From positions 1 to 58,451 of the IMG/VR virus record IMGVR_UViG_3300031669_000033: a DNA stretch of 58,451 bases; one strand, 5' to 3'. Below are positions 35,309 through 53,991 of this stretch, piece by piece. The position numbers and the translations under genes are program-made. This stretch comes from a virus. Its lineage: Duplodnaviria; Caudoviricetes. The number at the start of each line of letters is the position of its first letter. Position 1 is the stretch's first letter. A model generated the notes under the pieces. The model saw only the letters and a list, made by a program, of their open reading frames with translations, was not told the origin of the DNA and did not search any database.

Positions 35309-35320
35309 GGGAGTAGATCA

Positions 35321-36007
35321 ATGGCAATTCGGGCGAGTAAGGCGATCGCGGCCGGTGCCTCGAATGTGGATGCGGACGCGGAAGCGCAGTGTCTGATCGA
35401 GGTCATGCGGTTCGACAGCGACATGGGCCGTCTGCGGCAGGCAAAGGGGACCATGCTCAAGCGATTCGAGAGCATGGGCGTCAACATCAAGGGCGTGCAG
35501 CTGGCGGCGCGGCTGTCGAAGGTGGACGATGCGCAGTCGCAGTATCGGGCGAACACGCAGACGCTGCTGCGGCTCAAGATTCTGTCGGTCGATGATACCG
35601 GGCAGGGCTCCTTCATCAAGGGCCTGGAGGTGGTCAAGGCGGCGTCGCCGAAGCTGGAGGACGACGTCAGTCGGGCTCGGGCTCACAGCGATGGCTACAA
35701 CAGCGGCCGTGGCGGAGCGTTGGTGTCGTCCTGCAAGTTCAACGCGGGTTCGGCCGAGTTCGTCGCCTGGCGCGATGGCTGGGAGGATGGGCATAAGGAT
35801 CGGCTGGCGCGCAATCCGGACGCGGAAAAGGTCGTCGTCGCGTCGGGGCGTAAGCGCGGACGGCCGGCCGGGTCCACGAATAAGCCGAAGTCGGACGAAG
35901 GGAAACCGGAGGCGGCAAAGCCGGCAGGGCGCTCCGGCGTCAAGGCGGCTGAATCGGTTCCGGGTGTGGCGACGGACGCCGTTGGCGAGCCGGTCGGTTC
36001 CGCCTAA
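35321..36007 (+). CDS. GapR(DUF2312)-like domain plus RMF-like motif protein
   Basis: K.....G.N.K.....L.K.D helical N-domain; GY..G..G.....C.F.......W..GW.DG; basic KRGRP tail. Confidence 0.6.
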   Translation: MAIRASKAIAAGASNVDADAEAQCLIEVMRFDSDMGRLRQAKGTMLKRFESMGVNIKGVQLAARLSKVDDAQSQYRANTQTLLRLKILSVDDTGQGSFIKGLEVVKAASPKLEDDVSRARAHSDGYNSGRGGALVSSCKFNAGSAEFVAWRDGWEDGHKDRLARNPDAEKVVVASGRKRGRPAGSTNKPKSDEGKPEAAKPAGRSGVKAAESVPGVATDAVGEPVGSA

Positions 36008-36514
36008 GTGAGCGGCGCTCCGGGCGGGCTGCTGGCGCTGGATCTCTCCACGCGGGTCGGCTGGGCGTACGGTGCGGATTTCTCGGCGCCAGCGCACGGT
36101 ATATGGGAATTAAGCGGCGGCGGGACGTCGCTCGGGGCTCGCTGCAGTGCGCTGGCGGAACGGCTCGAGGATGCGATCGCGGTCTTGCAGCCGGGTCTCG
36201 TCATCCTCGAGGCACCGCTTCCTCCGAAGGCGCAGACGGCGATGAATTCGGCGCGCATCCAGTTCGGCCTGGCCGCGGTCGCCGAGATGATCTGCGAAGA
36301 GCAGCATGTGCGTGTCGAGGAGGAAAAAGCGGACACGGTTCGGGGGTTCATCCTCGGGCGCGCTCGGCCGCAAAAGCCGGAGATTGTCGCGTGGTGCAAA
36401 GCGCAGGGCTGGTCGCCGGTCGACCACAACGACGGCGATGCGCTGATGCTCTGGCGGTATCGGCATATCCTCGGCCGCAGCCGGGTCATGGCCGGGGCTG
36501 GCAGTGCCGGGTGA
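36008..36514 (+). CDS. RuvC-like Holliday junction resolvase
   Basis: LALDLS..VGWA, ILE and DHN..DA. Confidence 0.75.
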   Translation: MSGAPGGLLALDLSTRVGWAYGADFSAPAHGIWELSGGGTSLGARCSALAERLEDAIAVLQPGLVILEAPLPPKAQTAMNSARIQFGLAAVAEMICEEQHVRVEEEKADTVRGFILGRARPQKPEIVAWCKAQGWSPVDHNDGDALMLWRYRHILGRSRVMAGAGSAG

Positions 36515-36530
36515 TCCGTTCCAGAGCAAA

Positions 36531-36561
36531 GCCGGCCGGGGGCGAGGTGCCTCCGGCCGGC
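36531..36561. terminator. GC-rich hairpin between convergent genes
   Basis: GCCGGCCGGGGGC-GAGGT-GCCTCCGGCCGGC. Confidence 0.5.
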
Positions 36562-36581
36562 TCTGGTCGGTGGGTCGAAGA

Positions 36582-36875
36582 TCAGGGAAGCAGGTTGAAT
36601 TCGTTCAGCAGTTCAACGACGCGCATGTTCTGGATCGGCGCTTCGATCTCGGTCTGCATCTGCGAGACCATCGCGTCCTGCTGGGTAACGATGGCGCCTT
36701 CGATATCCCAATCGACCAGTTTGCCCAGGAGCTTGTCGAACAGGGCTTTGGTCGCGTCGCGGCGCCCGGCATCGTCCTCGGGGCCGAATTCAGCCTCGAT
36801 ATTGCGCAAGGCGCCGTTGATGAGCATGTCCAGCGCATGGGCGGCGTGGCGGATGGTCACGGATGGGTTGGTCAT
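36582..36875 (-). CDS. hypothetical protein (moron-like, with its own promoter)
   Basis: AAGGGA RBS; upstream TTGCAC-17-CAAAGT on the minus strand; oriented against its neighbours. Confidence 0.65.
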   Translation of the reverse strand: MTNPSVTIRHAAHALDMLINGALRNIEAEFGPEDDAGRRDATKALFDKLLGKLVDWDIEGAIVTQQDAMVSQMQTEIEAPIQNMRVVELLNEFNLLP

Positions 36876-37061
36876 TTGGGTGTCCCTTTTTCGTTCGCAG
36901 CCGGGGTTGGCTGGTGAGGGAACTTTGTTCGATCGCGTGGAACAGTGCAAGGGGAATTTGTGCCATCTCCTGCACGCGGTTCCATTTGACTCGTCCTTTC
37001 GGACATGGCGTTCTCGCAGTCGAATTCGAACAAACTCTAACCGGGCGGAGAGGATTGGACG

Positions 37062-38393
37062 ATGACTGTGGATATTCGGGTGGGTGATGCGCGGTCGGTA
37101 TTGGCCGATCTCGCTGACTGCAGCGTTCATTGCGTGGTCACATCGCCACCATATTTCGGCTTACGCGACTATGGCGTTGCCGGCCAGATCGGGCTTGAGC
37201 CGACGCTGGACGGATACATCGCGGAAATGGTTGCGGTGTTCCGCGAGGTGCGGCGCGTGCTGCGGGACGATGGAACCTGCTGGCTGAACCTCGGCGACAG
37301 CTATTCGACCAGGGCAAATGGATCGTGCGAGACGTCGGACACGGGGGTGCATTCGGTCCAGCACGCGGCGGCGCGGAGGGATATCTCGCTGCGGTCGCGC
37401 GGTATGTCGCCCGGGTTCAAGCACAAGGATCTTCTGATGGTGCCGGCGCGCGCGGCGATTGCGCTGCAGGAGGACGGGTGGTGGCTGCGTTCGGACATCA
37501 TCTGGTCGAAGCCGAATCCAATGCCGGAGAGCGTTATCGATCGGCCGACGAATTCGCATGAGCATGTCTTTCTGCTGGCGAAGTCTGACGGTCCCACCTT
37601 CTGGATGCACCGGGAAGGGCTCGGCAGCCGGGTGCAGCCGGCTCCGGATCACCGGTGGGTGGATTGGGACGCGGAGGGCGTAGAGCAGGCGGATGAGCCG
37701 GTCGACTGGCAGACAGAGCGGTCGCACCTGGACGGTCGGCGCAAGCGGTGGCGCCGCATCAATCTCTGGGAGGGCCGGTCGTATTTCTTCGACGCCGAGG
37801 CGATCAAAGAGGACGGCACCATCCCTGCGGGCACGCGCGCGGCGAAGGGGAGCAACGTGCGAAGCGAGTTGAAGGACGTGAACAGCCGGCCGCCGGAGTA
37901 CTGGGAATATGACGGCACGCGAAATGCTCGGAATGTCTGGACCATCGCCACGCAGCCGTTCTCGGGCGCCCATTTTGCCACGATGCCGCCGCGGCTGGTG
38001 GAGCGGTGCATCGCGGCTGGAACGTCGCAGGCGGGTTGCTGCTCGGTTTGTGGGGCGCCGCATGTTCGGACGCTCATCCGGACAAAGGCTATCATCCGAA
38101 AAAGCGAAAGGAACGACGATAGGGGTACCCGCACCAGGGTAAGCGGCACGCAGGTCGCTGCGGCCAGTGCGGAGACGATCGGGTGGTCTGCGTCCTGTAG
38201 CTGCCCGGGTGCGGACGTGGTGCCGTGCGTGGTTCTCGATCCGTTCGGGGGCGCAGGCACCACAGGGCTTGTCGCTGACCGTATGCAGCGGGACGCGGTA
38301 TTGATCGAGATCAACCCGGAATATGCGAACCTGGCGCGGGCACGCATCGCTGGGGACGCTCCGCTGTTTGCTTCCGGTCATGACGCGGCATAA
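37062..38393 (+). CDS. N4-cytosine/N6-adenine DNA methyltransferase (beta class)
   Basis: VTSPPYFGLRDY, LRSDIIW.KPNPMPES..DR, HFATMP and LDPFGGAGTT. Confidence 0.92.
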   Translation: MTVDIRVGDARSVLADLADCSVHCVVTSPPYFGLRDYGVAGQIGLEPTLDGYIAEMVAVFREVRRVLRDDGTCWLNLGDSYSTRANGSCETSDTGVHSVQHAAARRDISLRSRGMSPGFKHKDLLMVPARAAIALQEDGWWLRSDIIWSKPNPMPESVIDRPTNSHEHVFLLAKSDGPTFWMHREGLGSRVQPAPDHRWVDWDAEGVEQADEPVDWQTERSHLDGRRKRWRRINLWEGRSYFFDAEAIKEDGTIPAGTRAAKGSNVRSELKDVNSRPPEYWEYDGTRNARNVWTIATQPFSGAHFATMPPRLVERCIAAGTSQAGCCSVCGAPHVRTLIRTKAIIRKSERNDDRGTRTRVSGTQVAAASAETIGWSASCSCPGADVVPCVVLDPFGGAGTTGLVADRMQRDAVLIEINPEYANLARARIAGDAPLFASGHDAA

Positions 38394-38401
38394 TGGAAAA
38401 C

Positions 38402-38435
38402 GAAGAAGCCGCCGGCGGGAACCGGCGGCTTCTTC
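38402..38435. terminator. perfect 14-bp inverted repeat, terminator-like
   Basis: GAAGAAGCCGCCGG-CGGGAA-CCGGCGGCTTCTTC. Confidence 0.6.
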
Positions 38436-38543
38436 TGCGGCCTGGGAAGGGTCGCGGTGTCTCACGAAGGGAGTTCGTGTCGCAATGCAGAATCTATTCG
38501 CTCGATCGCTGAATGACAAGGCGTTGCCTGGGGTTCGGCGGTC

Positions 38544-38897
38544 ATGAGCATCGCGGCCGTGCATTTTGTTCTCGACGTCGATGTGCGGCGGTCGGCCGAT
38601 AAGCTCTTGCTGATCATGGTCGCGCGGTCTGCGGATCGGTCTGGTGTCGCATCCCCTACGCACAAGCGTCTCATGCGAGAGACGTCGCTCGATCGCAAGA
38701 CGGTCATTCGGGGCCTGCAGCGTCTCTGCGCGGACGGGTTTTTGTCGGACATCGGGCGGCGTGGTGATACCGGGCAGGTCGTCGTGTATCTCGTTCTAGG
38801 GCTGGGCGTACGGGCTGCGAGGAGACGGGGACGTCCTCGGCCAGCTGGGCCGCGTGCGGGCGCCTCCGGTGGTGCTATTGGGGGGATCTTCGGATGA
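38544..38897 (+). CDS. winged HTH protein (replication-associated)
   Basis: KLLLI..A..AD..G...P....L...T.L..KTV.R.L..L...G. Confidence 0.7.
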   Translation: MSIAAVHFVLDVDVRRSADKLLLIMVARSADRSGVASPTHKRLMRETSLDRKTVIRGLQRLCADGFLSDIGRRGDTGQVVVYLVLGLGVRAARRRGRPRPAGPRAGASGGAIGGIFG

Positions 38898-39877
38898 GTG
38901 CTGCAAAGGCATGGTTTCCGCTCTACGTCGCCGATTTCATGGTGGATACGGCAACTCTGACGATGGAGCAGTCCGGGTGTTACATGCAGATGTTGATGTA
39001 CTCCTGGCGCACGGCGCGGCTACCGGATGATGACGGGGAGTTGGCCGAGTTGTGCAGGATGCCACTGGCTCGGTGGCGGCGGCATGTGGCCGACAAGGTT
39101 CGGCCGTTCTTCGTGGTTCAAAACGGTCTTTTGCTCTCGCCGAGATTGGAACGGGAGCGGTCGGTCGCGGAGAAAAATGCGAACAGTGCGCGTGAAAAAA
39201 GTTTAGCTCGGTGGGGTGAAAAAAAAGGTGCAGTCGCTAAGGAAAACAAGCCTGTAGATAATGCTGCGGCATTGCCGGTGGAATCCTCACTACCTTTACC
39301 TATACCAAGAAAGGAAGAAAGAAAGGAAGAATCATCAACACCGAGTCTTCTCATTCACCAGTCGTGTTTGGGCGAAAAGGCCGCGCCTGACGGCGCTGGT
39401 TTGTTCCGTTTCGGGGACGCGGATGATTCGGCGGAAGGGGGGGCGCCGGTCGCGCCTGGCGGAGATCCGGTGCGGCGGGAATCGCCATCGGTTCTGACCA
39501 ATGGCACAGCGGTTGCGTTCGCGGAGTTCTGGTCGCGCTATCCGATGCGGATGTCAGGCGGTCGGCTGGTGAAACCGGATCGGACGGCGGCGGAAAAGGC
39601 ATTTGCGAAGGCGGTGAAAAGGGCGCCGGCCGATCGCATCCTCGAGGCGCTCGCACGATTTCCGTTCCAGTTCGATCAGCCACAATATATTCCAGGGCCG
39701 GCGGTCTGGCTGAACAAAGGCCAATTTCTGGCGGAGGTTGGTGCGGCGGTGAAAGCGCAACCGGCGCCGGGCAAGCTGGGCTGGATGGTCGAGGCGGCGG
39801 CTCAAGGGCGCGAAGGCGCGGACGCGGAGCATGAAGGCGTAACAATCGACGGAGGTGTCGAGCCATGTCGGAACTGA
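38894..39877 (+). CDS. replication initiator, DUF1376/YdaU-like
   Basis: WFPLYV.DF..DT..L..EQ.G.Y..L....W...LPDD..LA; C-terminal F..FW..YP...A.KAF...WLN. Confidence 0.85.
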   Translation: MSAAKAWFPLYVADFMVDTATLTMEQSGCYMQMLMYSWRTARLPDDDGELAELCRMPLARWRRHVADKVRPFFVVQNGLLLSPRLERERSVAEKNANSAREKSLARWGEKKGAVAKENKPVDNAAALPVESSLPLPIPRKEERKEESSTPSLLIHQSCLGEKAAPDGAGLFRFGDADDSAEGGAPVAPGGDPVRRESPSVLTNGTAVAFAEFWSRYPMRMSGGRLVKPDRTAAEKAFAKAVKRAPADRILEALARFPFQFDQPQYIPGPAVWLNKGQFLAEVGAAVKAQPAPGKLGWMVEAAAQGREGADAEHEGVTIDGGVEPCRN

Positions 39878-40590
39878 TGACGCGGGCCGTGGGTGGTGTG
39901 GCCCTGGCGGATCTGCCGCATCTCTCGCAGCCGCTCGAGGCGGCCATGCGGCAGGTGCTGCAGCCGCATCCCAGCGAGATCGGGAAGCGGCTAGAGGTCA
40001 TGCCATCCGTGCAGCGCGAAGCGGCGCAGCACCTGGCGCTGTTCGAGGCGTCGTGTCGGCCGGTCGAGGTGCGGCAGGTGCGGGCGTGGCTGCTCGGCAT
40101 CAATGGGGCCGTGCGCAATCCGCAAGGCGCGCAGGATTTCGAGATTCGGTTGGCGGCCGTGATGGCAGGGCTCGGGGACACGCCGGCGTGCGTCGTCTCC
40201 AAGGCAAGCCAGCGCGAGGCGCTTGCGTCGTTCGAGTTCTTTCCGGCGGTCGCGGATCTGGCGAAGCTGTGGGCGCCGGTGGCGTACGACATGCGGGCGC
40301 GTCTGTCGGCGCTCCGGTCGATCGCGGCGGCTCCGGTAATCGCACCGCCGGTCGAATTGACGCTGGCGGAACGTGAGGCAATCCTGGCCGAACATCGCGC
40401 GAAGATGGCGCCGCTTGAGGCGGAACGGCTGGCGCGCGAGGCGGCGGAGGCGGCTCCGCGGCGTGCTGTCGGTGGGCGCCCGGTGGATCCGGCGATACTG
40501 GAGGCAATTCGGGCGCAGTCTCCGATCGTGCGCGAGGCGCGGCGGATAGCGGCGGCGATCGCGGCGGCGCGGCCGTCGTTCGGCGAATGA
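39865..40590 (+). CDS. replication-associated protein (possible helicase loader)
   Basis: Follows the initiator; FFP.VA.L motif. Confidence 0.55.
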   Translation: MSELMTRAVGGVALADLPHLSQPLEAAMRQVLQPHPSEIGKRLEVMPSVQREAAQHLALFEASCRPVEVRQVRAWLLGINGAVRNPQGAQDFEIRLAAVMAGLGDTPACVVSKASQREALASFEFFPAVADLAKLWAPVAYDMRARLSALRSIAAAPVIAPPVELTLAEREAILAEHRAKMAPLEAERLAREAAEAAPRRAVGGRPVDPAILEAIRAQSPIVREARRIAAAIAAARPSFGE

Positions 40591-40650
40591 TGGGGCTATG
40601 GGCAGCGTGACGGCAGGCAATGTGACCGCGTGTGCGGTGTAGGAGTTCGG

Positions 40651-40860
40651 ATGGCAAAGCGCGCGGCATCACCAGGAACGAAGTCTCCCGAGAAAGCGAT
40701 GGCGGTCTTTCCGGATCACCGCATCGTCGGTGTCGGGACGCTCCGGCCTTATCCCAGCAATGCGCGCACGCACTCGCCGGAACAGGTCGATAAAATCGCG
40801 CGCTCGATCCAGGAGTTCGGATTCACGAATCCGATCCTGATCGACGGCGAGAGCTGGGCG
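40651..40860 (+). pseudogene. truncated ParB/Srx-like N-terminus, in frame with the downstream HNH gene
   Basis: L.PY..NARTHS..QV..IA.SI.EFGFTNPILID ends before the expected IIAGHGR motif. Confidence 0.7.
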
Positions 40861-40861
40861 C

Positions 40862-40889
40862 TTGGCATGTGGCGCCGGAGTGCTATCAT
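40862..40889 (+). promoter_or_regulatory. sigma70-like promoter for a probably leaderless HNH mRNA
   Basis: TTGGCA-16-TATCAT with a TGn extension; ATG 40897 begins 8 nt after the last -10 base. Confidence 0.5.
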
Positions 40890-40896
40890 TCGTCGT

Positions 40897-41517
40897 ATGG
40901 CCAGTGATAACGAATATTGGATCGCGCTTCCGGGACTGCCGGGATACGAGGTTTCGAACATGGGGCGCGTTCGGTCGCTGGATCGGGTGCGGCTATTTGT
41001 TGGGAGGTGGGGGCCGACGAGCCGCCGGCATCGTGGGCGCATCCTGAAGCTTAAGCCAAAGCCGAACGGGAGCGGTGCGATCTACTGGTGCTTTTACGCG
41101 GATGGGGGAGCATGGCCGCAGGTAAATCGGTCGGTTTGCTTGGCATTTCATGGTGACCCACTTTCGGCGCGACACGAGGCGGCACATCTTGATGGCGACA
41201 CCGGCAACAACCGTCCGGAAAATTTGAAGTGGGCGACCCCCGCCGAGAACGCTTCCCATAAGATTGCTCACGGCACCATTACGGTGGGGAGCAAAAATGG
41301 AGCCGCGAAGATTTCGGAAGAACAGGCCGCTCAAATTCTGGAGCGATACGGTCGAGGCGAACCTTCTGCAAATCTGGCGGCGTTATTCGGCGTTTCCGAG
41401 TCATTGATACGGGGAGTTGCTCGGGGGGCAATCTGGAAGCATGTCGCTTCGGACCATCGCGCAGCGGCGCTGGCGCGTCTCCGCCAAAACATGATCGAAG
41501 CGCCTCGACGCAATTGA
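40897..41517 (+). CDS. NUMOD4-HNH homing endonuclease
   Basis: W..LPG..GYEVSNMGRVRSLDR; V.R.V..AF.G...H.DG...NN...NL.W.T..EN..H. Confidence 0.85.
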   Translation: MASDNEYWIALPGLPGYEVSNMGRVRSLDRVRLFVGRWGPTSRRHRGRILKLKPKPNGSGAIYWCFYADGGAWPQVNRSVCLAFHGDPLSARHEAAHLDGDTGNNRPENLKWATPAENASHKIAHGTITVGSKNGAAKISEEQAAQILERYGRGEPSANLAALFGVSESLIRGVARGAIWKHVASDHRAAALARLRQNMIEAPRRN

Positions 41518-41527
41518 AGGAGCGAAA

Positions 41528-42109
41528 ATGAAGCCTGCGGTGAAGGCGGCGCGCAAGGCACCGCGCGCGGCGGCTCGGGCTACCGGCAGGGCCGGGGCTG
41601 GGGCGACGGAAAAGACGGTGACGGAGAAGGTGCCCACGGCTCCGGCTCCATCTCCGGCTAAGGCGAGGGGGCGCCCGCGCTCGGTGGTGGTGCAAGCCAA
41701 GAAACCACCAGCAGCGCCGGCGCCGGTCGCGGCTCCGGAAGATCCGGCGCCGAAGGGCCAGCGCGGCGGCCAGAATCGGTTTGAGCCGACGGCGGATCAG
41801 GCAAAGGTTGTCCGGGCGATGGCAGCCTACGGGATCCCGCAGGACAAGATTGCGCAGGCAATCGGAATCTCGAAGCCGACTCTGGAAAAGCATTTCCGGG
41901 AGACGCTCGATATCGCCATGACGGAAGCGAACGCGAAAGTAGCGGAGACGCTGTTCAAAATGGCAACGTCTGGCACGGTGGTAGCGGCGACGATCTACTG
42001 GACTAAGGCCAGGATGGGCTGGCGGGACGTGCAGGCGATCCAGCAGCTGGACGAGAACGGCAACCCGATCGCGCCGGGCGCCACCTTCGTCCTCAAGATC
42101 GAGCGGTAG
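41528..42109 (+). CDS. terS: terminase small subunit-like HTH protein
   Basis: AYGIPQ..IA..IGIS..TL.KHF..L....A.A.V...LF..A..G...A.IYW.K.R.GW; AAGGAG RBS. Confidence 0.75.
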   Translation: MKPAVKAARKAPRAAARATGRAGAGATEKTVTEKVPTAPAPSPAKARGRPRSVVVQAKKPPAAPAPVAAPEDPAPKGQRGGQNRFEPTADQAKVVRAMAAYGIPQDKIAQAIGISKPTLEKHFRETLDIAMTEANAKVAETLFKMATSGTVVAATIYWTKARMGWRDVQAIQQLDENGNPIAPGATFVLKIER

Positions 42110-42365
42110 GAGCGGCTTTCGCGGGCGGCGGGTTGGCGGTGTGGTGCATCGTCAGGATCTCGAGCCATCTGGCCACTGGCGCCGGGATGGGGGCGCCGGC
42201 GCGCCACCTGCGCACCTGGCGCTCGTCCATCTCCAGCAGGGCGCCCAGGGTGCGGTTGGTCCAGCAGAGGATGGCGAGGCAGATGCCCAGGCGCTCGCCG
42301 GTCATGGGCGGCTCGGGCGGCGTCTCGATCCTGGCGTCGTGATAGGCCAGCGGGCGGGATCTCAT
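42093..42365 (-). CDS. small HTH regulator (last gene of the leftward cassette block)
   Basis: MT......CL..L.W....L...L..DER.VRRW..G..IP..VA.WL; ATGA overlap with the methyltransferase. Confidence 0.7.
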   Translation of the reverse strand: MRSRPLAYHDARIETPPEPPMTGERLGICLAILCWTNRTLGALLEMDERQVRRWRAGAPIPAPVARWLEILTMHHTANPPPAKAAPTARS

Positions 42366-43444
42366 CGGTTCATCTCCATGTAGGCCGCGATTACTTCGGC
42401 GGCGACGACGGGGTTGATGGCGTTGCCGTAGGCGCGGAGCTTTTGGACGTCGCCTTTTTGGCGGATCGCGAGGGGCCAGATCTCGGCGGTTTCGGGGGTG
42501 GAAAGCAGGAACTCCAGGCCGGAGGAATTCCCTGCAACCACGCGCTGAACGCTGGATTGAGTAGGCCGGAATTTGCCGTCTGTGCAGGCAATCCATTCAA
42601 GGCTGCCCCAGGGATCGTGTGGGCGACCTGGTTCTGCAGTTGCTCGCCTTTGGCTCCCTGGCCACGCTCCCGCAGCGTCTGGTGTTTCGGGGTGCGCCAG
42701 TCGCGTGCCGCTGGCGTCGCCCAGCCTGCTGTTTGCGCCGCGGCCACCAAGCACATCATCCCAGGGCGCGGCGTGATGTGGCCGCCCTTCAGGCTGTCGT
42801 TGACCGTCGCTGTCGGCCAACTGGCCAGCAACGAGACCGCGTTGAGGCTCACCGTCGCCTTGCTGCCGTCCGGCCGGCGTCCCGTCGCGTTCGCCCCGGC
42901 CGCTGCCTGCGAGCCATCCGCGTTGCCCACCGTTGGGGTCGGCCACCCAGTACAGCCGGTGTCGGATGTTCGGTGCCCCGACGCCCGCAGAAGGGAATAC
43001 GACCGGCCCGCAGGTGTAGCCACCTGCTTCCAGGTCAGTTGATACAAGATCGAGCCACATCCGGCCGTCCTTGCCTTCAACCTGCTCGCCAAAGATGACG
43101 CCAGGGCGATGCTGCTGGACGAGCCAATGCCAGGCGGGCCAAAGGTGCCGCTCGTCAGCAAACCCAGCGCCTTTGCCTGCCGCGCTGAAAGGTTGGCAGG
43201 GACAGGAGCCGGTCCAGACCGGGCGATCGTCGGGCCACCCGGCGCGGCGCAGGGAGTAGGACCAGAGGCCGATGCCAGCAAAGAAGTGGCATTGTGTGTA
43301 GCCTCGGAGATCGTCGGGGCACACGTCCTCGATGCTTCGGTCGTCAACGTCGCCAGGGGCCACAAGTCCAGCTGCAATGGCGTTGCGGATGCACTCGGCG
43401 GCATGCTTGTCCCTCTCGTTGTAATAGGCGCGGGGTGCGGTCAT
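42362..43444 (-). CDS. C5-cytosine DNA methyltransferase, alpha polypeptide
   Basis: FFAGIG (motif I), GSCPCQPFS (IV), GEQV (VI), R.RLYWV (VIII) and LRAYGNAI (X). Confidence 0.9.
   Translation of the reverse strand: MTAPRAYYNERDKHAAECIRNAIAAGLVAPGDVDDRSIEDVCPDDLRGYTQCHFFAGIGLWSYSLRRAGWPDDRPVWTGSCPCQPFSAAGKGAGFADERHLWPAWHWLVQQHRPGVIFGEQVEGKDGRMWLDLVSTDLEAGGYTCGPVVFPSAGVGAPNIRHRLYWVADPNGGQRGWLAGSGRGERDGTPAGRQQGDGEPQRGLVAGQLADSDGQRQPEGRPHHAAPWDDVLGGRGANSRLGDASGTRLAHPETPDAAGAWPGSQRRATAEPGRPHDPWGSLEWIACTDGKFRPTQSSVQRVVAGNSSGLEFLLSTPETAEIWPLAIRQKGDVQKLRAYGNAINPVVAAEVIAAYMEMNR
42391..43404 (-). CDS. overlapping alternative-frame ORF: beta polypeptide of the C5 methyltransferase
   Basis: WPTP/WPTA/WATP repeats and LNPAFSAWLQGIP..W, which resembles motif IX missing from alpha. 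True start uncertain. Confidence 0.7.
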   Translation of the reverse strand: MPPSASATPLQLDLWPLATLTTEASRTCAPTISEATHNATSLLASASGPTPCAAPGGPTIARSGPAPVPANLSARQAKALGLLTSGTFGPPGIGSSSSIALASSLASRLKARTAGCGSILYQLTWKQVATPAGRSYSLLRASGHRTSDTGCTGWPTPTVGNADGSQAAAGANATGRRPDGSKATVSLNAVSLLASWPTATVNDSLKGGHITPRPGMMCLVAAAQTAGWATPAARDWRTPKHQTLRERGQGAKGEQLQNQVAHTIPGAALNGLPAQTANSGLLNPAFSAWLQGIPPAWSSCFPPPKPPRSGPSRSAKKATSKSSAPTATPSTPSSPPK

Positions 43445-43674
43445 CTGCTGAAGTCGCAGGAGGGAGAAGCCAGGAAGAAGGCGATCAGGCTCTCGATATC
43501 GCCTTCCCATCCCTGCTCGGCGGCCATCTTCAGGGAGTCGCGCGCCTGATCGACCACCATGTCAGCGTCCGCGCCGCGGGCCGGCTGTGTCGCGCGGATA
43601 TATGCGCTGTCCATCAGCTTCTGGCGTGCATGCATCAGGCACTGGTTGATCGGGAGTTTGAAGGTGGTCGTCAT
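43441..43674 (-). CDS. hypothetical protein, first gene after repeat unit 1
   Basis: GAGGGA RBS within the repeated leader; MTTTFKLPINQC...; ATGA overlap with the methyltransferase. Confidence 0.7.
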   Translation of the reverse strand: MTTTFKLPINQCLMHARQKLMDSAYIRATQPARGADADMVVDQARDSLKMAAEQGWEGDIESLIAFFLASPSCDFSR

Positions 43675-43756
43675 CTGGGCTGGTCCCTCGAAACTCGGCG
43701 GGCCCGCTGCCCTGCCGCTGGATGGAACATGCCGCAAATCGCGGACATCTGCAAGC
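43675..43756 (-). promoter_or_regulatory. promoter-operator-leader repeat, copy 1
   Basis: TTGCAG-17-CATGTT with CCGCGATTTGCGG in the spacer. Confidence 0.75.
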
Positions 43757-43790
43757 AAACATCGGCGATCCGCGGCATCTTTTCGCAGCG

Positions 43791-44546
43791 TCACCCGCTG
43801 ATGCTGTAGCAGGTGCAGGCGCGCTCGGTGTCGGTCGCCGACAGCTTCGTGCGGGTGACCACGCGCGTCTTGCCGAGCGTGCTGACGAAGGCGCGCACGG
43901 TGTGCGGCGCCCAGCCGAGGGCTTCCTCGATCTCCGGCCCGGTGGCGCCGTTCGGCCGGGCCAGGAGGGCGATAGCCTGGTCCTGCTTGCTCGGGGCGCC
44001 GGCGGCGCGCGGCGCCGGCGAGCTGGCCCGCTGGCGCGGCGGGGCGCCTTTCAGGGCGTCCAGGGCCGTCCGGAGCTCGGCGCGCTGCGTTGCGTGCTCG
44101 CCGCGGAAGGAGAACTCGTCGAGGGAAGCCAGCAGTTGCTCGGCAGCCAAACGGACGCGCTCCTGGCGTCCCTTGGCGCTGCGGTCCCAGCTGGCGGCGT
44201 TTGCCTGGGCGACCGGGTGCTCGAAGAAGCTGGTACTGCCGATATCGACGGCTGGCTCGGGCTCGGGCTCGGGGTCCGCGGCCGGCGCCGGCGGTTCGCG
44301 GCCGATCGCGGCCAGGCCGGCATCGGTGATGTAGAAAGCTTTCGGGTAGCCAGTCGCGTCGGCGATCACCAGCCCCGGGGAGTCCCGAGGGGCATCGATC
44401 CGTTCGAGGTAGCCGGGCTTCGTCTGCGCGGTGCAGCTGTTCAGCGCGACCACGTAGGGCTTGTTGGAAAGGATCGGGACCAGGCGGTCGGCGCGATCGG
44501 CGGCGCTGGTCAGCACCAGGCGGGCGGTGTCGGAAAGGTCGGGCAT
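43791..44546 (-). CDS. DUF3489-like winged-HTH protein
   Basis: SKQ...IALL.RP.GAT..EI...GW.PHTVR...S.L.K; N-terminal ITDAGL.AIG. Confidence 0.8.
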   Translation of the reverse strand: MPDLSDTARLVLTSAADRADRLVPILSNKPYVVALNSCTAQTKPGYLERIDAPRDSPGLVIADATGYPKAFYITDAGLAAIGREPPAPAADPEPEPEPAVDIGSTSFFEHPVAQANAASWDRSAKGRQERVRLAAEQLLASLDEFSFRGEHATQRAELRTALDALKGAPPRQRASSPAPRAAGAPSKQDQAIALLARPNGATGPEIEEALGWAPHTVRAFVSTLGKTRVVTRTKLSATDTERACTCYSISG

Positions 44547-44650
44547 CGTGGGATCCTCTGTGGTTGCGGGCCGGTGGATCCGGCTCCTTGCACCGGCTCA
44601 AGCCCGGCCTGCTGTGCAGGTCCGGGCGGCCGAGGCGCCAGGGCGGCGCG

Positions 44651-44833
44651 TTAGGCAGCGTCGCGTGCTGCGCGGGCTGCCTCGAGCAGATCATGGGCGG
44701 CTTGGTCTGCAGCCGACAGCGCGCTGTCCAGCTCGGCCTCGGCGCGCTGCATCGCCGCTCTGGCAGCACGCACTCTGCTGTTGGCGCTGTCAGCGCCGGC
44801 GGCCGCGGCGGCGATGAGAGGGTGGACGTTCAT
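44651..44833 (-). CDS. small Ala-rich helical protein
   Basis: GGAG RBS; MNVHPLIAAA... Confidence 0.6.
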   Translation of the reverse strand: MNVHPLIAAAAAGADSANSRVRAARAAMQRAEAELDSALSAADQAAHDLLEAARAARDAA

Positions 44834-44873
44834 GGTGGTGCTCTCCGGTGCAGGGTGGTGCAGGGTGGTGCGG

Positions 44874-45062
44874 TCAGGGCACCAGGTGGGAGCCGTTGAC
44901 CGAGGCGTCGCTCTTGATGTCGAGCAGGATGGCAGCGGCGGCGAGGGCATCACTTTGGGCATGGCGCTCGTCGTCTGCGGTGATCTCGATCGACATGGTG
45001 CCGTAGATGCGGCGGCCGTTATAGGTGGTCGAAATGCTCAGTTCGACGTCGTATGCGGGCAT
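44874..45062 (-). CDS. small hypothetical protein
   Basis: GGAG RBS; 62 aa, acidic. Confidence 0.7.
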   Translation of the reverse strand: MPAYDVELSISTTYNGRRIYGTMSIEITADDERHAQSDALAAAAILLDIKSDASVNGSHLVP

Positions 45063-45119
45063 CTTCGTTTCTCCGGGTGGGTGGGGAAGGAAGCCGGCGC
45101 GGGGCCGGCTCCGGGAACG

Positions 45120-45341
45120 TCAGGCTTTGTATTCGCCTTCCAGGAAAACCATGTCCGAGATCTCGGTGAGGCGCTGTTGAAGGTTTGCCATCGAGCCGGC
45201 GTCGCCCCAGGTCACTCCGCGAGGGCCGGCGCCCAGGCCGAAGTCAGATTCGGCGGCGGCGGTCAGGCGGGCGAGGGCGGCGATCGCGCGGGCCCGGTGG
45301 GCTTCGAAGGCGGCGGCGGCGGTGGCGGGGGTGTTGCTCAT
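45120..45341 (-). CDS. small hypothetical protein, first gene after repeat unit 2
   Basis: F...P..V.WG.AG.......L.EI.D..F.EGE motif. Confidence 0.75.
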   Translation of the reverse strand: MSNTPATAAAAFEAHRARAIAALARLTAAAESDFGLGAGPRGVTWGDAGSMANLQQRLTEISDMVFLEGEYKA

Positions 45342-45423
45342 CGGGTCTATCCCTGGTTTTCGGCGGGGCCAATCCCCTGTCCGTAAAAACAACATGCCGC
45401 AAATTGCGGACGGATGCAAGCGG
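45342..45423 (-). promoter_or_regulatory. promoter-operator-leader repeat, copy 2
   Basis: TTGCAT-17-CATGTT with the perfect CCGCAA-T-TTGCGG palindrome; GGGG/CCCC hairpin; AGGGATAGACCCG-ATG. Confidence 0.8.
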
Positions 45424-45443
45424 GAAAAGATGTTTTTTCAGAA

Positions 45444-45722
45444 TTAAAAAAGGGATTGCTGGCGGGGGTCGGGCGGCTCGATCTCGGGCTCGGCCGGCGT
45501 GGGCTCGGCCGGCGCGGGCTCGCAACCTGGCGCCCAGCGAAAGCCGAGTTCCTCGGCGGTCTCGGCGCGCTGCTGGTGGGGCTCCGGCAACAGGTCGCCG
45601 GCGCTGTAGTACTGCGTGCAGGGGGCGCACTGGTAGGCGCCGCATCGGTCGCAAGGGATCGCAAGCGCGGGGTGCGTGCAGCGCCGGCGGGGCTGCCACA
45701 GGACGACGACGGGCGCCTTCAT
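45444..45722 (-). CDS. small zinc-binding protein
   Basis: PCDRCGA...PC.........H..R motif. Confidence 0.65.
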   Translation of the reverse strand: MKAPVVVLWQPRRRCTHPALAIPCDRCGAYQCAPCTQYYSAGDLLPEPHQQRAETAEELGFRWAPGCEPAPAEPTPAEPEIEPPDPRQQSLF

Positions 45723-45925
45723 GCCCATATCCTTTCGCTCAGGCGCTCGAGGTGCGCAACCTGGGCGGCGGCGGTCGCGCGGCTGTCGCGCATAAGCTGT
45801 GCCCACCGCGGGCGGTCCATGTCGGTCAGGGCGGCCACGCCGCGGGTGTAGTGGTCAAGCTAGCGCCGCGCATGGGCAAGCATGATGTCGATGGTCCAGG
45901 GGGGGGTATCGGCGTCGTAGATCAT
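45719..45925 (-). pseudogene. 68-codon gene interrupted by an in-frame TAG at codon 22
   Basis: GGAG RBS; MIYDADTPPWTIDIMLAHARR*LDHYTRGVAAL...SERIWA-TGA overlapping the next ATG. Confidence 0.65.
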
Positions 45926-45947
45926 GGCGGGGCTCCGGGAGGTGGGG

Positions 45948-46244
45948 TTAGAGGGCGAGGCTAGTCTGCGTGTCGGCGGTGGTGGCGCGGGCGCTGGGGC
46001 GGCGCTCGGCGCGCTGCATCTGGCGGTAGGCGCGATCGAGGTCGTCCTGGGCGCGGATGGCGCGGCGCGCGGCGTCGGTGTGGGCGGTCTCGGCCTTCGC
46101 AAAGATCCCGATGCGCAGGGCGCTCGGGCTGCGGTTCATGGCGCGGCGCGCGGAGGTCAGGGCGCGGCTGGCGGCGCTGCACTCGGCGTGGGCGAGGTCG
46201 GCGGCGGCCTGTGCGGCCTGGTAGATATCGGGGAGGGGCATCAT
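45948..46244 (-). CDS. Ala/Arg-rich helical hypothetical protein
   Basis: ATGA coupling to the upstream gene. Confidence 0.6.
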   Translation of the reverse strand: MMPLPDIYQAAQAAADLAHAECSAASRALTSARRAMNRSPSALRIGIFAKAETAHTDAARRAIRAQDDLDRAYRQMQRAERRPSARATTADTQTSLAL

Positions 46245-46393
46245 CGTGCTTTCCGTGCCAGGGCGTTGAGGTCTCGGTTCATCTGGCGCACCGCGGCGTC
46301 GTATTGGGGTTGCGTCAGTTCGCCTTCGATCAGGCGTTGGTCGAGGCGGTCCATCTGGCGTTCGGCCAGGCGCTCGATCTGTTCCTCGGTCAT
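46241..46393 (-). CDS. small hypothetical protein (50 aa, not in the ORF track)
   Basis: MTEEQIERLAERQMDRLDQRLIEGELTQPQYDAAV...; coupled at both ends. Confidence 0.7.
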   Translation of the reverse strand: MTEEQIERLAERQMDRLDQRLIEGELTQPQYDAAVRQMNRDLNALARKAR

Positions 46394-46587
46394 GCCTCGG
46401 TCTCCGTGGCGGTGTAGGAAAGGGGGCCTTCGTGCCGATCCCAGCCCATGCTGCGAACCTTCGGCCGGGCTGCGGCGATCGCGTCCTTCTTGTTCTTGGC
46501 GAACACTTCGACCTAGTAGCCGCGGTGGACACCCATGCTGCTATGGCCGGGGAACTTCAGGGCGGCGGTTACGGTGTAGGTTTTCAT
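46390..46587 (-). pseudogene. 65-codon gene interrupted by an in-frame TAG at codon 25
   Basis: AGGAG RBS; MKTYTVTAALKFPGHSSMGVHRGY*VEVFAKNKKDAIAAAR...TETEA-TGA overlapping the next ATG. Confidence 0.7.
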
Positions 46588-46613
46588 CGGGGCGTTCTCC
46601 TGCGGGGTTCGGG

Positions 46614-46817
46614 TTAGCGGCTGGCGCGGCCGGCGGCGTATGCGAGTTCCAGGGCGCGCTTCAGTTCCCACACCGCTACTTCGTGAAAGTCGAGGCTATC
46701 GCTGTTGCGGGTCTCGAGGGTCTCAATGCGCAGGGTGTTGGCGGCGATGCCGCCCACCAGGGTGCCGATCTGGTCGGCGGTCAGGGCGGTATGGGTGGTC
46801 TTGGTGGTGCGGGCCAT
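46614..46817 (-). CDS. DUF6900-like protein, first gene after repeat unit 3
   Basis: IETLETRNSDSLDFHEVAVWELKRALELAYAAG. Confidence 0.8.
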   Translation of the reverse strand: MARTTKTTHTALTADQIGTLVGGIAANTLRIETLETRNSDSLDFHEVAVWELKRALELAYAAGRASR

Positions 46818-46900
46818 CGGGTCAATCCCTAGTTTCTGGCTGGGGCTTATCCCCTTGCCGTGATCAGAATATGCCGCAAATTGCGGACCGATGCAAGCGG
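46818..46900 (-). promoter_or_regulatory. promoter-operator-leader repeat, copy 3
   Basis: TTGCAT-17-CATATT with the perfect palindrome; GGGG/CCCC hairpin; AGGGATTGACCCG-ATG. Confidence 0.8.
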
Positions 46901-46929
46901 TTTGTTCGTATAATTCGGACAAATATTCC

Positions 46930-46958
46930 TTGCATGCGGGGTGGCGTGTGGTCAAAGT
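46930..46958 (+). promoter_or_regulatory. rightward sigma70-like promoter, back-to-back with repeat copy 3
   Basis: TTGCAT-17-CAAAGT upstream of ATG 46983. Confidence 0.5.
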
Positions 46959-46982
46959 GTCAGCAGCAGAAGGGAACAAGCT

Positions 46983-47189
46983 ATGCACCAGGTTGATGCG
47001 GTTATGAGGCGGGCGTTTCCGCGGTTCGGGCACGACGTGTGCGATTGGGCGCGCTGCGTGATCGGGGCGCGGATCGCGCGGGAAGCCGGCTTGCGGATGG
47101 TGGCGGCGGATCGGCTGCGGGCGGCGGCGGAGTTCCGCCGGATACTGGCGCCGGCGCGGCAGACCGTGTTTCCGGAGCTGCCGCAATGA
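46983..47189 (+). CDS. hypothetical protein
   Basis: AAGGGA RBS; ATGA coupling to the next gene. Confidence 0.6.
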   Translation: MHQVDAVMRRAFPRFGHDVCDWARCVIGARIAREAGLRMVAADRLRAAAEFRRILAPARQTVFPELPQ

Positions 47190-47920
47190 GCGGGGAGGGG
47201 GCGGGGCCGATCCCGGGGCCGTATGCCTTCCGGCGCGACAACGAGGCAACCGGTGAGTCGGAGGACATGCTCCTGCTCGTTGAAATTGACGGCAATCTGC
47301 GATTGGTCGGTCGGGTCTATCACCGGGCAGTCGGGCCGATGGCCGATCATGTCTATGCGACCGCGCGGCTCATGGCGAATAGCTGGAACCTGCTGCAGGC
47401 GCTGCTGCGGGCGCGCGAGGGGCTTATCCGTGGGGGCATGGTGCCGTTCGTGGAGGAGGTCGATCGGGCGTTGACCAATGCGGACAGGGCGCCTCCGGAT
47501 GTCGGCCTATTTCCGGCGGTGTCGCCGGTCGCGGTCGCCGGTCTCGAGCGTGAAATTTTGAACATGCTCGAGGAGCGGTTCGAAGTGTTCATGGCGCGCG
47601 AAAGCAAGAATCCCGCGAGGGTGGTGGACGGCGATGTGCTGGACGCGCTGTGCCGCCTGGCGCGGTGTCGGGCAACGATGAAAGATCCGGTCCGGCTGCA
47701 GCGCGATCTGGCGCCGGCTGCGGCCGAGGTGCCGCCGGTGCGTGCGGTCGCGGTTCCGTGCCCGGTGCAGCCGCGTGGCTGCATCTGTCCGGTCGGCGCG
47801 GAGGCTACCTGCCGGAGCATGAATTGTGGGCGTGGGCTCGGCGCGGCCGGTCATTCGTGGGCCGGGCAGCATGTGTCGTGGATCACGGATCCGGGCGCGG
47901 GAGGCGGCAATGGCCGATAA
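47186..47920 (+). CDS. hypothetical protein with a C-terminal Cys motif
   Basis: A.ARLMA.S..LL.AL and GCICP.GAE.TC...C motifs. Confidence 0.65.
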   Translation: MSGEGAGPIPGPYAFRRDNEATGESEDMLLLVEIDGNLRLVGRVYHRAVGPMADHVYATARLMANSWNLLQALLRAREGLIRGGMVPFVEEVDRALTNADRAPPDVGLFPAVSPVAVAGLEREILNMLEERFEVFMARESKNPARVVDGDVLDALCRLARCRATMKDPVRLQRDLAPAAAEVPPVRAVAVPCPVQPRGCICPVGAEATCRSMNCGRGLGAAGHSWAGQHVSWITDPGAGGGNGR

Positions 47921-51716: not shown

Positions 51717-52030
51717 TGGGCATGGCTGCGGTGATTGCTAAGTCCTATCGCATGAACCTGGCGGAGATACGGCTCAAGATGCGGGATGGCTGGCGCGATA
51801 TGCGGGAGGCGCCGCGCGACTGCTCCTGGATCGATGGGATGATGGCGGATCAATCGGTGGTGCGTGTCCACTATGCATGCGGCGATGGGGACGGTGCCCA
51901 ACGGTCGTTCCGTGGCTGGTTTCGATCGGCTGGCGCTGCGTGGTTCGCCGGGGTGGATGATCCGGTGTTGTGGCGGCCTATCGTGATGGAATGTCCGCAA
52001 TCTGCGGGCGCAACGGAGGGTGAAGGATGA
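51716..52030 (+). CDS. hypothetical protein (W.....AP.D motif)
   Basis: WRDMREAPRD...GW...P..WRP, a DUF551-like pattern. Confidence 0.6.
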   Translation: MGMAAVIAKSYRMNLAEIRLKMRDGWRDMREAPRDCSWIDGMMADQSVVRVHYACGDGDGAQRSFRGWFRSAGAAWFAGVDDPVLWRPIVMECPQSAGATEGEG

Positions 52031-53105: not shown

Positions 53106-53758
53106 TGGACGAGGCGGCTGTGAAAGCGGGCGGTTGCGGCATCGTGGTCTTCGCTGGCGATGGGGTAGACGGGGGGGGCTCGGTGGCGTTGGCAGATGCG
53201 TCGGGAAACGTGGTGGGGTTCGTGCGGCCCGAGGCGATCCAGTGGCTTCCGTTCCTACCTTCGCCGGAGGCTGCGGGCATGGAGGCGAAGATGTCGCCGT
53301 GGGTCGGCGTCGATCTGGACCGGACGCTGGCGCATTACGATCGGTTCGTCTCCGGTACGCATATCGGTGAACCGATTCTGCCGATGGTCAGGCGGGTGCA
53401 GGCGTGGCTGGCGGCTGGGGTAGATGTGCGGGTGTTCACCGCGCGCATTGCGGTCGAAGATCCGGCGCCGATCGTGGCGGCGGTGCAGGCGTGGTGCGTG
53501 CGGCATATCGGGGTGGGGCTGCCAGTGACCGCGACGAAGGATTTCGGCATGGTGGAACTGTGGGACGATCGGGCGGTGCAGGTGCTGCCGAACCGCGGCC
53601 ATGCTGTGGTGGTGGTGGACCGGGCGGAACTGCTGCGGGAACTGTGCGGGCCGGAGTGCCGCTGCGGTGCTGGGTATGCGGCTTGTGATCAGCGCCTACA
53701 CACCAGCGCGGCGGTGGCGGCGGTGGTGGCGCTGCTCAAGCGGAAGGGGATCGGATGA
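53105..53758 (+). CDS. HAD-superfamily phosphatase-like protein
   Basis: GVDLDRTLA (DxD), VFTAR and K.......DDRA. Confidence 0.8.
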   Translation: MDEAAVKAGGCGIVVFAGDGVDGGGSVALADASGNVVGFVRPEAIQWLPFLPSPEAAGMEAKMSPWVGVDLDRTLAHYDRFVSGTHIGEPILPMVRRVQAWLAAGVDVRVFTARIAVEDPAPIVAAVQAWCVRHIGVGLPVTATKDFGMVELWDDRAVQVLPNRGHAVVVVDRAELLRELCGPECRCGAGYAACDQRLHTSAAVAAVVALLKRKGIG

Positions 53759-53991
53759 TGGCGCCGGGAGGGATGCCGCCGGATCCGGGAATGACGCCAG
53801 TCGAGTTCGTGTCGTGCTTGGCGCTTCTCCGGTGGAGCGCGAGCGAGGTGGCCATCTGGTGCGGCTATTCGCGGCAGACCGCGCAAGCCTGGGCGCTGGG
53901 GCGGCATCGCATCCCGGGGCAGGTGGTGAAGTGGCTGGATCAGCGGCTGGCGGGCGAGCTTGTCGATCCGCCGGCGCGGCCGGAGGTCTAG
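53755..53991 (+). CDS. small HTH protein
   Basis: MTP.EF..CL..L.W....A...G......W..G...IP..V..WL; paralogous to 42093-42365. Confidence 0.7.
   Translation: MMAPGGMPPDPGMTPVEFVSCLALLRWSASEVAIWCGYSRQTAQAWALGRHRIPGQVVKWLDQRLAGELVDPPARPEV

Follow-up and report, generated by a model that had tools for sequence, protein, structure and literature searches.

Three copies of a putative promoter-operator-leader unit head an accessory gene block of a high-GC phage and point to an Aca-like regulon

The subject of this analysis is IMG/VR virus record IMGVR_UViG_3300031669_000033 (Duplodnaviria, Caudoviricetes), which was taken in full as a single window (58,451 nt, 66% GC, estimated completeness 88%), and within it a leftward block of 13 open reading frames (ORFs) headed by three copies of a putative promoter-operator-leader unit, P3, P2 and P1, with six, four and three ORFs behind them, respectively. 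The last gene of the block, gM, encodes a small helix-turn-helix (HTH) protein and is the candidate repressor. An initial reading made from the sequence alone (hereinafter, the sequence-only reading) had proposed an early, autorepressed anti-defence or host-takeover regulon with about 14 mostly tiny genes, 13 by the present count. The three units and their operators are located as follows.

46815..46898, minus strand: unit 3 (P3), with -35 element TTGCAT at 46896-46891, -10 element CATATT at 46873-46868 and the ATG at 46817-46815
46886-46874, minus strand: operator of unit 3, CCGCAATTTGCGG, followed by a leader with GGGG-ATAAG-CCCC and AGGGATTGACCCG
45339..45421, minus strand: unit 2 (P2), with -35 element TTGCAT at 45419-45414, -10 element CATGTT at 45396-45391 and the ATG at 45341-45339
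45409-45397, minus strand: operator of unit 2, CCGCAATTTGCGG, with the leader following and an AT-rich stretch upstream
43672..43756, minus strand: unit 1 (P1), the most diverged copy, with -35 element TTGCAG at 43754-43749, -10 element CATGTT at 43731-43726 and the ATG at 43674-43672
43744-43732, minus strand: operator of unit 1, CCGCGATTTGCGG, followed by a leader with GGGC-AGCGG-GCCC

The ~85-nt units conform to the scheme GCTTGCA(T/G)-N3-GTCCGC(A/G)ATTTGCGG-CAT(A/G)TT and continue into a leader that comprises a G-run/C-run hairpin and then AGGGA-N4/5-CCC-(A)G-ATG. In each of the three, the palindrome lies within the spacer between TTGCA(T/G) and CAT(A/G)TT. A search of the window with the 17-mer TCCGCAATTTGCGGCAT, allowing up to three mismatches, identifies three occurrences, all on the minus strand, at 43729-43745 (one mismatch), 45394-45410 and 46871-46887 (no mismatches in either), compared to 0.29 expected from shuffled sequences, of which 2 in 100 reach three matches. 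The 28-nt pattern GCTTGCA-N3-GTCCGC-N-ATTTGCGGCAT yields three matches on the reverse strand, none on the forward strand and none with the reversed-pattern control, and a repeat search recovers the three copies as a 59-nt family (D2), with 83% and 69% identity to the reference copy. In the three-way alignment, the invariant parts are GCTTGCA, GTCCGC, ATTTGCGGCAT, GGG..CCC and AGGGA..CCC. The presence of three minus-strand copies with a palindrome in the spacer is thus confirmed by pattern, repeat and alignment searches, and the proposed AGGGA...CCC(A)G-ATG start context is found in all units. The distances from the operator end to the ATG are 57, 55 and 56 nt in copies 1, 2 and 3; the counting convention explains the offset from the 58, 56 and 57 nt given originally. 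The similarity between the units reaches a few codons into the ORFs (ACCACC-type) and then ends. The intergenic gaps that hold the units are 116, 102 and 165 nt long, that of unit 3 being divergent, and those of units 2 and 3 have a GC content of 52%, compared to 66% for the genome, with AT-rich DNA upstream of the -35 element. Across a total of 16 units, those of the window and of 12 other loci (see below), the distance between the operator end and the ATG is 44-60 nt, and alignments of homologous units show little or no variation in TTG, the 17-nt spacing and CAT-N-T while the flanks diverge.

A degenerate inverted operator proposed after copy 1 (43761-43778) does not hold up, given that it matches the 13-mer in 8 of 13 positions, a level reached by ~1% of the window positions. 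Elsewhere in the window, CCGCAATCTGCGG at 51995-52007 (plus strand) matches the operator in 12 of 13 positions, 19 nt before the ATG of a 278-aa gene at 52027; this site overlaps the end of the preceding ORF, has no TTGC or CAT context, and was dismissed as compatible with chance by the score distribution. A sigma-54 reading of the units, with TTGCA as the -12 box, was likewise discarded because inspection by eye finds no GG element 10-11 nt upstream.

The ORFs of the block, grouped by unit, are listed here from P3 downstream.

45444..46817, minus strand: sub-operon behind P3, gA-gF, six ORFs
46817-46614, minus strand: gA, DUF6900, phrog_2555
46587-46390, minus strand: gB, with an in-frame TAG at 46513-46515
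46393-46241, minus strand: gC, no family match
46244-45948, minus strand: gD, no family match
45925-45719, minus strand: gE, with an in-frame TAG at 45860-45862
45728-45444, minus strand: gF, Cys-rich
43791..45341, minus strand: sub-operon behind P2, gG-gJ, four ORFs
45341-45120, minus strand: gG, phrog_14596
45062-44874, minus strand: gH, no family match
44833-44651, minus strand: gI, no family match
44546-43791, minus strand: gJ, 251 aa, with a C-terminal DUF3489 domain (a common family)
43441..43674, minus strand: gK, first gene behind P1, 77 aa, no family match
42362..43444, minus strand: gL, C5 cytosine DNA methyltransferase, 360 aa (phrog_363, E 1.8e-71; PF00145, E 5.8e-13)
42093..42365, minus strand: gM, candidate repressor and last gene, 90 aa, XRE-type HTH

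Apart from gA, gG, gJ, gL and gM, the remaining eight ORFs of the block have no match, and a literature search on DUF6900 returned none. General family scans identify no anti-CRISPR (acr) family among the block genes, and no restriction endonuclease family is represented among the 13 ORFs. In gB and gE, the frame and the coding appearance persist past the in-frame TAG, and gE, when translated through the TAG, has a match to phrog_6071 that spans this codon (residues 9-61, E 0.002). Genome-wide recoding of TAG was rejected: there is no suppressor tRNA, and of the 79 other gene calls, 78 of which have a stop codon, 14 end in TAG. These codons may be nonsense mutations or assembly errors, or the two ORFs may be pairs of very short ORFs. 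The methyltransferase region (42362-43510, minus strand) is unusual in that two overlapping frames each match methyltransferase PHROGs, frame 1 matching phrog_363 (E 1.8e-71, residues 4-359) and the other frame phrog_1008 (E 5.2e-23, residues 31-315); this dual signal reflects either alternative-frame members of the PHROGs or mid-gene frameshifts.

The small HTH gene at the block end (42365-42093), noticed in the sequence-only reading, is confirmed by profile matches and by the fold model. The ATG of gM overlaps the stop codon of gL, and the other members of the family begin at the equivalent of M21 (ATG at 42305). The AlphaFold model (predicted local distance difference test score, pLDDT, 88.7) consists of four helices (23-32, 37-44, 48-55 and 62-77). 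A single-sequence homologue search with gM returned gM only, whereas a profile search against 1.84 billion representatives identifies 3295 proteins at E <= 1e-3, of which 453 reach E <= 1e-10; lengths of 64-100 aa predominate. The family consensus, MTPxRLxxCLxxLxWSxRxLAxxLGxDERxVRRWxxGxxxIPxxVAxWLExLAxxHxxxPPP, spans ~65-70 aa and ends in H-x3-PPP. The source names are generic (XRE-family HTH, YiaG or hypothetical), and in Pfam the family matches generic HTH families only (HTH_31, HTH_3 and HTH_23 in 22-23 of 48 members); gM itself has no Pfam match at E <= 0.01 and gives a weak HTH match in the family scans. Some of the long representatives (P0003, P0004, P0007, P0069 and others; 448-4162 aa) contain 5-27 tandem 70-aa domain matches, an odd architecture for an XRE-type HTH.

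A Foldseek search started with the gM model places Aca2 chains among the best matches and with the lowest root-mean-square deviation (1.2-1.5 A over 59 columns, E 0.04-0.9); the further structural neighbours are HigA2, MqsA-C, Aca1, Aca7 and the C protein C.Kpn2I. The family profile also matches four Aca2 entries from residue 1 (E 0.015-0.33). A scan of the whole window with PF08965 (Aca2_YdiL) gives no match at E <= 10, whereas control genomes do match. Thus, the layout is Aca-like and the HTH fold is nearest to that of Aca2, but with neither a PF08965 match nor the Aca2 C-terminal domain gM is not a member of the Aca2 family. The window encodes a second member of the gM family.

53755..53991, plus strand: 53755, second gM-family member, 29% identity to gM, lacking its own unit

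The recognition helix of this protein reads SRQTAQAW, compared to DERQVRRW in gM; the helix-3 motif D(E/S)(R/T)(Q/R)VRRW is common to gM and the HTH proteins of the operator-bearing loci described next, and is missing from 53755.

The operator is found in company with gM homologues in other phages. The starting point was a search of viral contigs with a relaxed operator pattern, which gave ten matches; one of these (L327) has an operon preceded by two palindromes, CCGCATTTTGCGG and CCGCAATTTGCGG-CATGTC, and the product of the penultimate gene of this operon is 41% identical to gM. From the protein side, a search with an alignment of gM, the L327 homologue and 53755 detects nine viral loci, and one with an alignment of five closer members detects seven, of which six are new, for a total of 15. 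In 9 of the 15 (L334-L339, L360, L361 and L364), exact CCGCA-N3-TGCGG arms are present on the strand of the HTH gene, 330-1150 nt upstream, and in all nine the palindrome falls within the spacer of an element that resembles a promoter (TTG...CAT-N-T) and is directly adjacent to the CAT. Two loci (L332 and L362) possess a leader homologous to that of the window (GGCGAGGGGAT-GGCCCCAGCCGAAATCGAGGGATTACCCAGATG) with a shifted or variant palindrome. Another one (L340, 2706-2740) shows the unit architecture of the window with a different palindrome, that is, TTGACA, the 16-nt palindrome GGGGGCATATGCCCCC, CATATT, a G/C-rich leader and CCCCGATG, and its ArdC operon ends in a distant HTH gene of the gM family. 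In the nine HTH loci detected first (61,107 nt), there are 11 occurrences of the arms, versus 5 in 80 unrelated phage loci (1,096,797 nt). A tblastn search with all window proteins shows that only gM is common to these loci, except that L332 also has a C5 methyltransferase gene in convergent orientation. Detailed reading of five of the loci (L332, L360, L361, L362 and L364) places the HTH gene at the end, with a start codon that overlaps the stop codon of the gene before it. Lineage B (L334-L339) contains a second operator just upstream of the -35 element and has its own leader. In L334, two such operator-pair units are present (3084-3119 and 4265-4300), the second one between the HTH gene and a gene for a 68-aa protein ahead of the integrase, which indicates that arrays of units exist outside the window. 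Three copies are seen in the window only: a complete relative (G403) has a single unit, and the strict operator-plus-hairpin pattern finds three known contigs, none of them multi-copy. Pattern scans of genomes and metagenomes gave at least 208 matches, nearly all of them single chance ones besides three loci at ttcA (see below), and the six operator 13-mers have no match in the literature text.

The cargo behind the units varies. The first genes behind the 16 units fall into 12 unrelated families (BLASTP, E < 1e-3), so that the comparison of leaders and downstream genes in related phages bears out the expectation that the cassettes differ. Among the cargo that can be named, L340 encodes a full ArdC (ArdcN and MPTase-PolyVal domains, PF08401 and PF18818; phrog_7245, 'anti-restriction protein', E 2.7e-79), L360 encodes an LPD29 protein, and the window contributes the C5 methyltransferase adjoining gM; the remaining cargo of the relatives is unannotated. 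In lineage B, the operon runs through the HTH gene into an integrase (a tyrosine integrase in L334 and L337). The regulator-operator pair could be used to search high-GC phages for accessory genes, probably of the counter-defence type; to our knowledge, hardly any anti-defence genes have been described from these phages. The 11 small ORFs of the window and about a dozen cargo families of the relatives are candidates for defence-inhibition screens.

Taken together, these observations, all of them made on sequences and models, are on balance best compatible with an Aca-like autorepressed accessory regulon in which one regulator, gM, would serve three promoters and the cargo is probably involved in counter-defence or host takeover. 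Under this hypothesis, the three units would be paralogous copies of one regulatory module, each with a promoter for the host RNA polymerase (TTGCA(T/G)-17 nt-CAT(A/G)TT), a 13-bp palindromic operator with CCGCA-N3-TGCGG arms that fills the 3' part of the spacer and abuts the -10 element, and a conserved ~55-nt 5' untranslated region (UTR) ending in AGGGA..CCC(A)G-ATG. Together, the units are predicted to drive the 13-gene leftward accessory block. The operator would most likely be bound by a gM dimer, and accumulating gM would then shut off its own sub-operon (P1) along with the HTH-less sub-operons upstream (P3 and P2), resulting in Aca-type negative feedback over three promoters. We infer promoter activity, the transcription start, dimerisation, early timing and the anti-defence function; binding of gM to the operator and repression are suggested by the co-occurrence of the operator with gM homologues, and an anti-defence role is plausible. 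If correct, the window would offer a natural example of three tandem promoters under a single small repressor, an arrangement that for the known Aca families has so far been predicted only bioinformatically.

Several results weigh against this interpretation. The nine positive loci are not independent, since L334-L339 form one lineage, L361 and L364 are near-identical, and L337 is the L327 contig from which the association itself was derived; because of this relatedness, about three independent lineages remain besides the window. Three of the 15 loci (L333, L363 and the probably spurious L365) contain no such palindrome, and on chromosomes, where 11 of 401 alphaproteobacterial genomes have family members in 15 places, no exact arms are found within 1.5 kb. 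A scan for E. coli-type sigma-70 promoters (TTGACA-N16-18-TATAAT, at least 9 of 12 positions) identifies none in 41500-47500, and the units score 6-7 of 12. For the 11 small cargo ORFs, Pfam, PHROGs and NCBIfam yield no match to an annotated anti-defence family, and the integrase that follows the HTH gene in lineage B implies that the gM family is not tied to anti-defence cargo. With regard to the leader, the three copies fold into the same two hairpins with stabilities close to those of shuffled sequences (z -0.06, -0.62 and -0.35), and across seven leaders of lineage A there is a single compensatory pair, with a covariation term of +0.43. Accordingly, of the regulon as originally proposed, the layout, the co-occurrence of operator and HTH and the varying cargo stand, whereas strong and early promoters stay at the level of a proposal, the E. 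coli-type scan finding none; similarly, an anti-defence cargo is suggested by ArdC, LPD29 and the C5 methyltransferase, all of known or predicted counter-defence type, but not by the small genes of the window, which have no such match.

A broader function is possible, albeit doubtful, namely that gM and its relatives are general autoregulated controllers of early or accessory operons, with a cargo that mixes lysogeny, integration, superinfection-exclusion or host-takeover genes. The lineage B operons that continue into a tyrosine integrase (L334 and L337) would be compatible with such a role, as would the lack of any match for most cargo genes and the size of the family, whose 3295 representatives (E <= 1e-3) are mostly unannotated. 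However, the cargo that can be named consists of ArdC, LPD29 and DNA methyltransferase, classes that the excerpted text of PMC13551039 reports in Aca-regulated operons, and tiny genes with fast turnover in front of a conserved small HTH gene are the usual guilt-by-association mark of anti-defence loci.

It is rather unlikely that the units are real promoters with an operator that is bound by another protein, be it the Cro-like or another lysis-lysogeny regulator, 53755, gJ or a host factor, with gM merely travelling along. Each of these candidates has something to recommend it. In the 122-nt gap (51% GC) that separates the Cro-like gene from the leftward early operon, the plus-strand site CGCAA-ATATG-TTGCG (34510-34524) contains the 5-nt half-sites of the unit spaced by 5 nt instead of 1; 53755 belongs to the HTH family of gM; gJ has a winged-helix DUF3489 domain and is encoded directly upstream of P1; and, on the host side, the palindrome occurs in promoter geometry with a copy-1-like leader in front of the chromosomal ttcA gene of Aminobacter (L130), Mesorhizobium (L161) and one further genome (L164). 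Nevertheless, in the records of five relatives (four of them fragments, 37-58% complete) a homologue of gJ is absent throughout and a weak match to the Cro-like protein turns up once, whereas 53755 lacks the helix-3 motif common to gM and the HTH proteins of the operator-bearing loci. Thus, among the four binders suggested by the sequence-only reading, gM (42093) is favoured, and the products of 43791, 53755 and the Cro-like gene are not. The ttcA match amounts to 3 of 90 matches in genome contigs from 185,579 species, and part of the resemblance was selected for because the search pattern fixed the promoter geometry. A host regulon was examined and rejected: two host-like genomes contain 25 and 36 copies of the palindrome with up to one mismatch, compared to 16 for the reversed control, and the exact copies other than that at ttcA are inside coding sequence, so that nothing points to a host regulon. 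The ttcA promoter itself, in the rpsD-ttcA intergenic region, reads CTTGCG-N5-CCGCRATTTGCGG-AATACC, with a leader that ends in GAGTTTTGAGGACCGGACCGATG; the local alignment score of this leader with unit 1 is 18, compared to a mean of 8.3 (standard deviation 1.9) for the other pattern matches. The likeness could have arisen by chance or through capture of a host promoter, or it could hint at the identity of the host.

Finally, it is highly improbable that the palindrome acts as a nucleic-acid hairpin, either an intrinsic terminator of the upstream sub-operon or an N4-type hairpin promoter. In favour of this reading, a terminator scan flags copy 2 (CCGCAATTTGCGG followed by CATGTTGTTT), the stem is 5-6 bp long with a loop of 1-3 nt, and copies 2 and 1 come directly after the stops of gF and gJ. 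However, copy 3 has no upstream gene on the same strand, the T-rich tail is found at copy 2 only, the N4-type promoter was discarded given that PHROG and Pfam scans find no phage RNA polymerase among the window proteins (the 1711-aa virion protein being a polyvalent protein), and the invariance of the arms across two lineages with dissimilar leaders fits base-specific protein contacts, whereas a structure would tolerate compensatory changes.

Within the Aca-like regulon favoured here, the leader merits separate consideration. The shared leader hairpin noted at the outset survives as a set of common G/C-rich elements and a common fold, and not as a stability beyond that of shuffled sequence. 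The lineage B leader contains a 7-bp stem in which four one-sided changes all retain G-U pairs and no pair is broken. Among four sequences of lineage A, compensatory changes are seen in three of nine predicted pairs, all due to copy 1 and all in the first hairpin (7 pairs). A 5'-proximal hairpin combined with a small GGG-N5-CCC hairpin over the Shine-Dalgarno sequence is a plausible prediction from these sequences; the leader hairpins are unlike the DNA operator. As a speculative and rather improbable extension, the ~90-nt unit, conserved through the first codons, might be a portable expression module and homology handle for cargo swaps, with the array in the window and the pair in L334 as its products, and the structured 5' UTR (the G/C hairpin and GGG-N5-CCC over the Shine-Dalgarno sequence) might mediate control at the RNA level by the same HTH protein, as for Aca2. 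Should this be the case, gM would represent a new Aca-like family with DNA and RNA targets, suited to high-GC phages. With respect to the suggestion that the leaders act as recombination handles, replacement of the cargo at a conserved unit is seen, and a recombination mechanism is not.

The surroundings of the block were mapped by PHROG and Pfam scans of 79 crude gene calls, with the following result.

Up to ~28 kb, plus strand: structural, ejection and lysis genes (PHROG/Pfam)
28.6-34.4 kb, leftward: RecT/exonuclease operon (PHROG/Pfam)
34556 to 42109 (end), rightward: operon with a Cro-like gene (34556), replication, methyltransferase, HNH/ParB and TerS-like genes
42093-46817, leftward (minus strand): the 4.7-kb block under study
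From 46983, rightward: operon with DUF5131, two tRNAs and, at the end of the record, the large terminase subunit

Because the leftward block is flanked by rightward operons, it appears to be an inverted island with its own transcription signals. In the divergent gap, the plus-strand element CCTTGCAT-N17-CAAAGT (46929-46958) faces the rightward gene at 46983; its -35 box, CTTGCAT, is that of the units, there is no palindrome, and it may be a rightward promoter. An Rfam scan of the window identifies two tRNAs only, none of them within the block. The 1711-aa protein of the virion module (20003-25135, plus strand) contains ART-PolyVal and ddrB-ParB domains and is a polyvalent protein, a kind proposed to be injected for counter-defence. 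In the rightward operon, the matches to replication-initiator PHROGs are divided between two plus-strand ORFs (38544-39877 and 40699-41517) separated by a 470-nt gap; in this region, an HNH endonuclease domain is fused to a ParB-like N-terminus. Relatives of the phage are scarce: the strict 26-nt pattern has no match in viral contigs that would reveal close relatives, gJ and a 244-aa neighbour protein have no relatives in viral contigs, the palindrome is absent from all 80 DUF5131-neighbour loci searched, and a blastn search against GenBank phages matches the methyltransferase gene as the sole part of the window.

Among the known systems, the controller (C) proteins of restriction-modification (R-M) systems are likewise small XRE-type HTH proteins, and C.Kpn2I is among the structural neighbours of gM; furthermore, a DNA methyltransferase gene immediately precedes gM, and another, in convergent orientation, is present beside the HTH gene of L332. 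However, no restriction endonuclease gene was found in the block, the HTH gene is located at the end of the operon rather than at its head, and the cargo of the relatives does not consist of R-M genes. The nearest solved HTH domain to gM is that of Aca2 from phage ZF40 (DUF1870, PF08965). In the excerpted text of PMC6765145, to which, as to those of the two papers cited below, the present comparison is confined, the Aca2 inverted repeat IR1, TTCG-N6-CGAA, lies between TTGCTT and TATAAT separated by N17, so that, as in the units, the operator is found between a TTGC-type -35 and a -10 element. Aca2 is a homodimer on its palindrome, and by analogy gM may be as well. The differences include the size and domain composition, with Aca2 chains of 115-125 aa carrying a C-terminal dimerisation domain that the ~70-aa gM family does not have; the binding site, TTCG-N6-CGAA in Aca2 and CCGCA-N3-TGCGG in the window; and the RNA motif, which in Aca2 derives from the second repeat (IR2), whereas the leader hairpins of the window do not resemble the DNA operator.

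More generally, Aca proteins are described as small HTH repressors, with genes located downstream of acr genes, that bind to an inverted repeat in the core promoter, sometimes along with a second repeat (PMC9410906), and a 2026 study (PMC13551039) predicts that most Aca families also control neighbouring operons, with up to three sites near three operons of which one alone holds the aca gene, and reports 5'-UTR RNA motifs as well as methyltransferase/R-M and LPD29 cargo. The block in the window lacks a known or predicted anti-CRISPR gene in the family scans, and its HTH family, operator (CCGCA-N3-TGCGG) and leader differ from those of Aca1-Aca14, as compared by the Pfam model of Aca2 and the solved Aca structures. 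In other respects, the resemblance is extensive: a small HTH gene (65-90 aa) comes last after tiny, fast-changing genes, an inverted repeat is located in the core promoter and is followed by a conserved 5' UTR, lineage B contains a second repeat upstream of the -35 element comparable to IR2, three neighbouring operons each have a site and one has the regulator, and methyltransferase and LPD29 cargo are in common with the window and its relatives. Judged from sequence, the window therefore fits the Aca picture, with a different HTH family, operator and leader.

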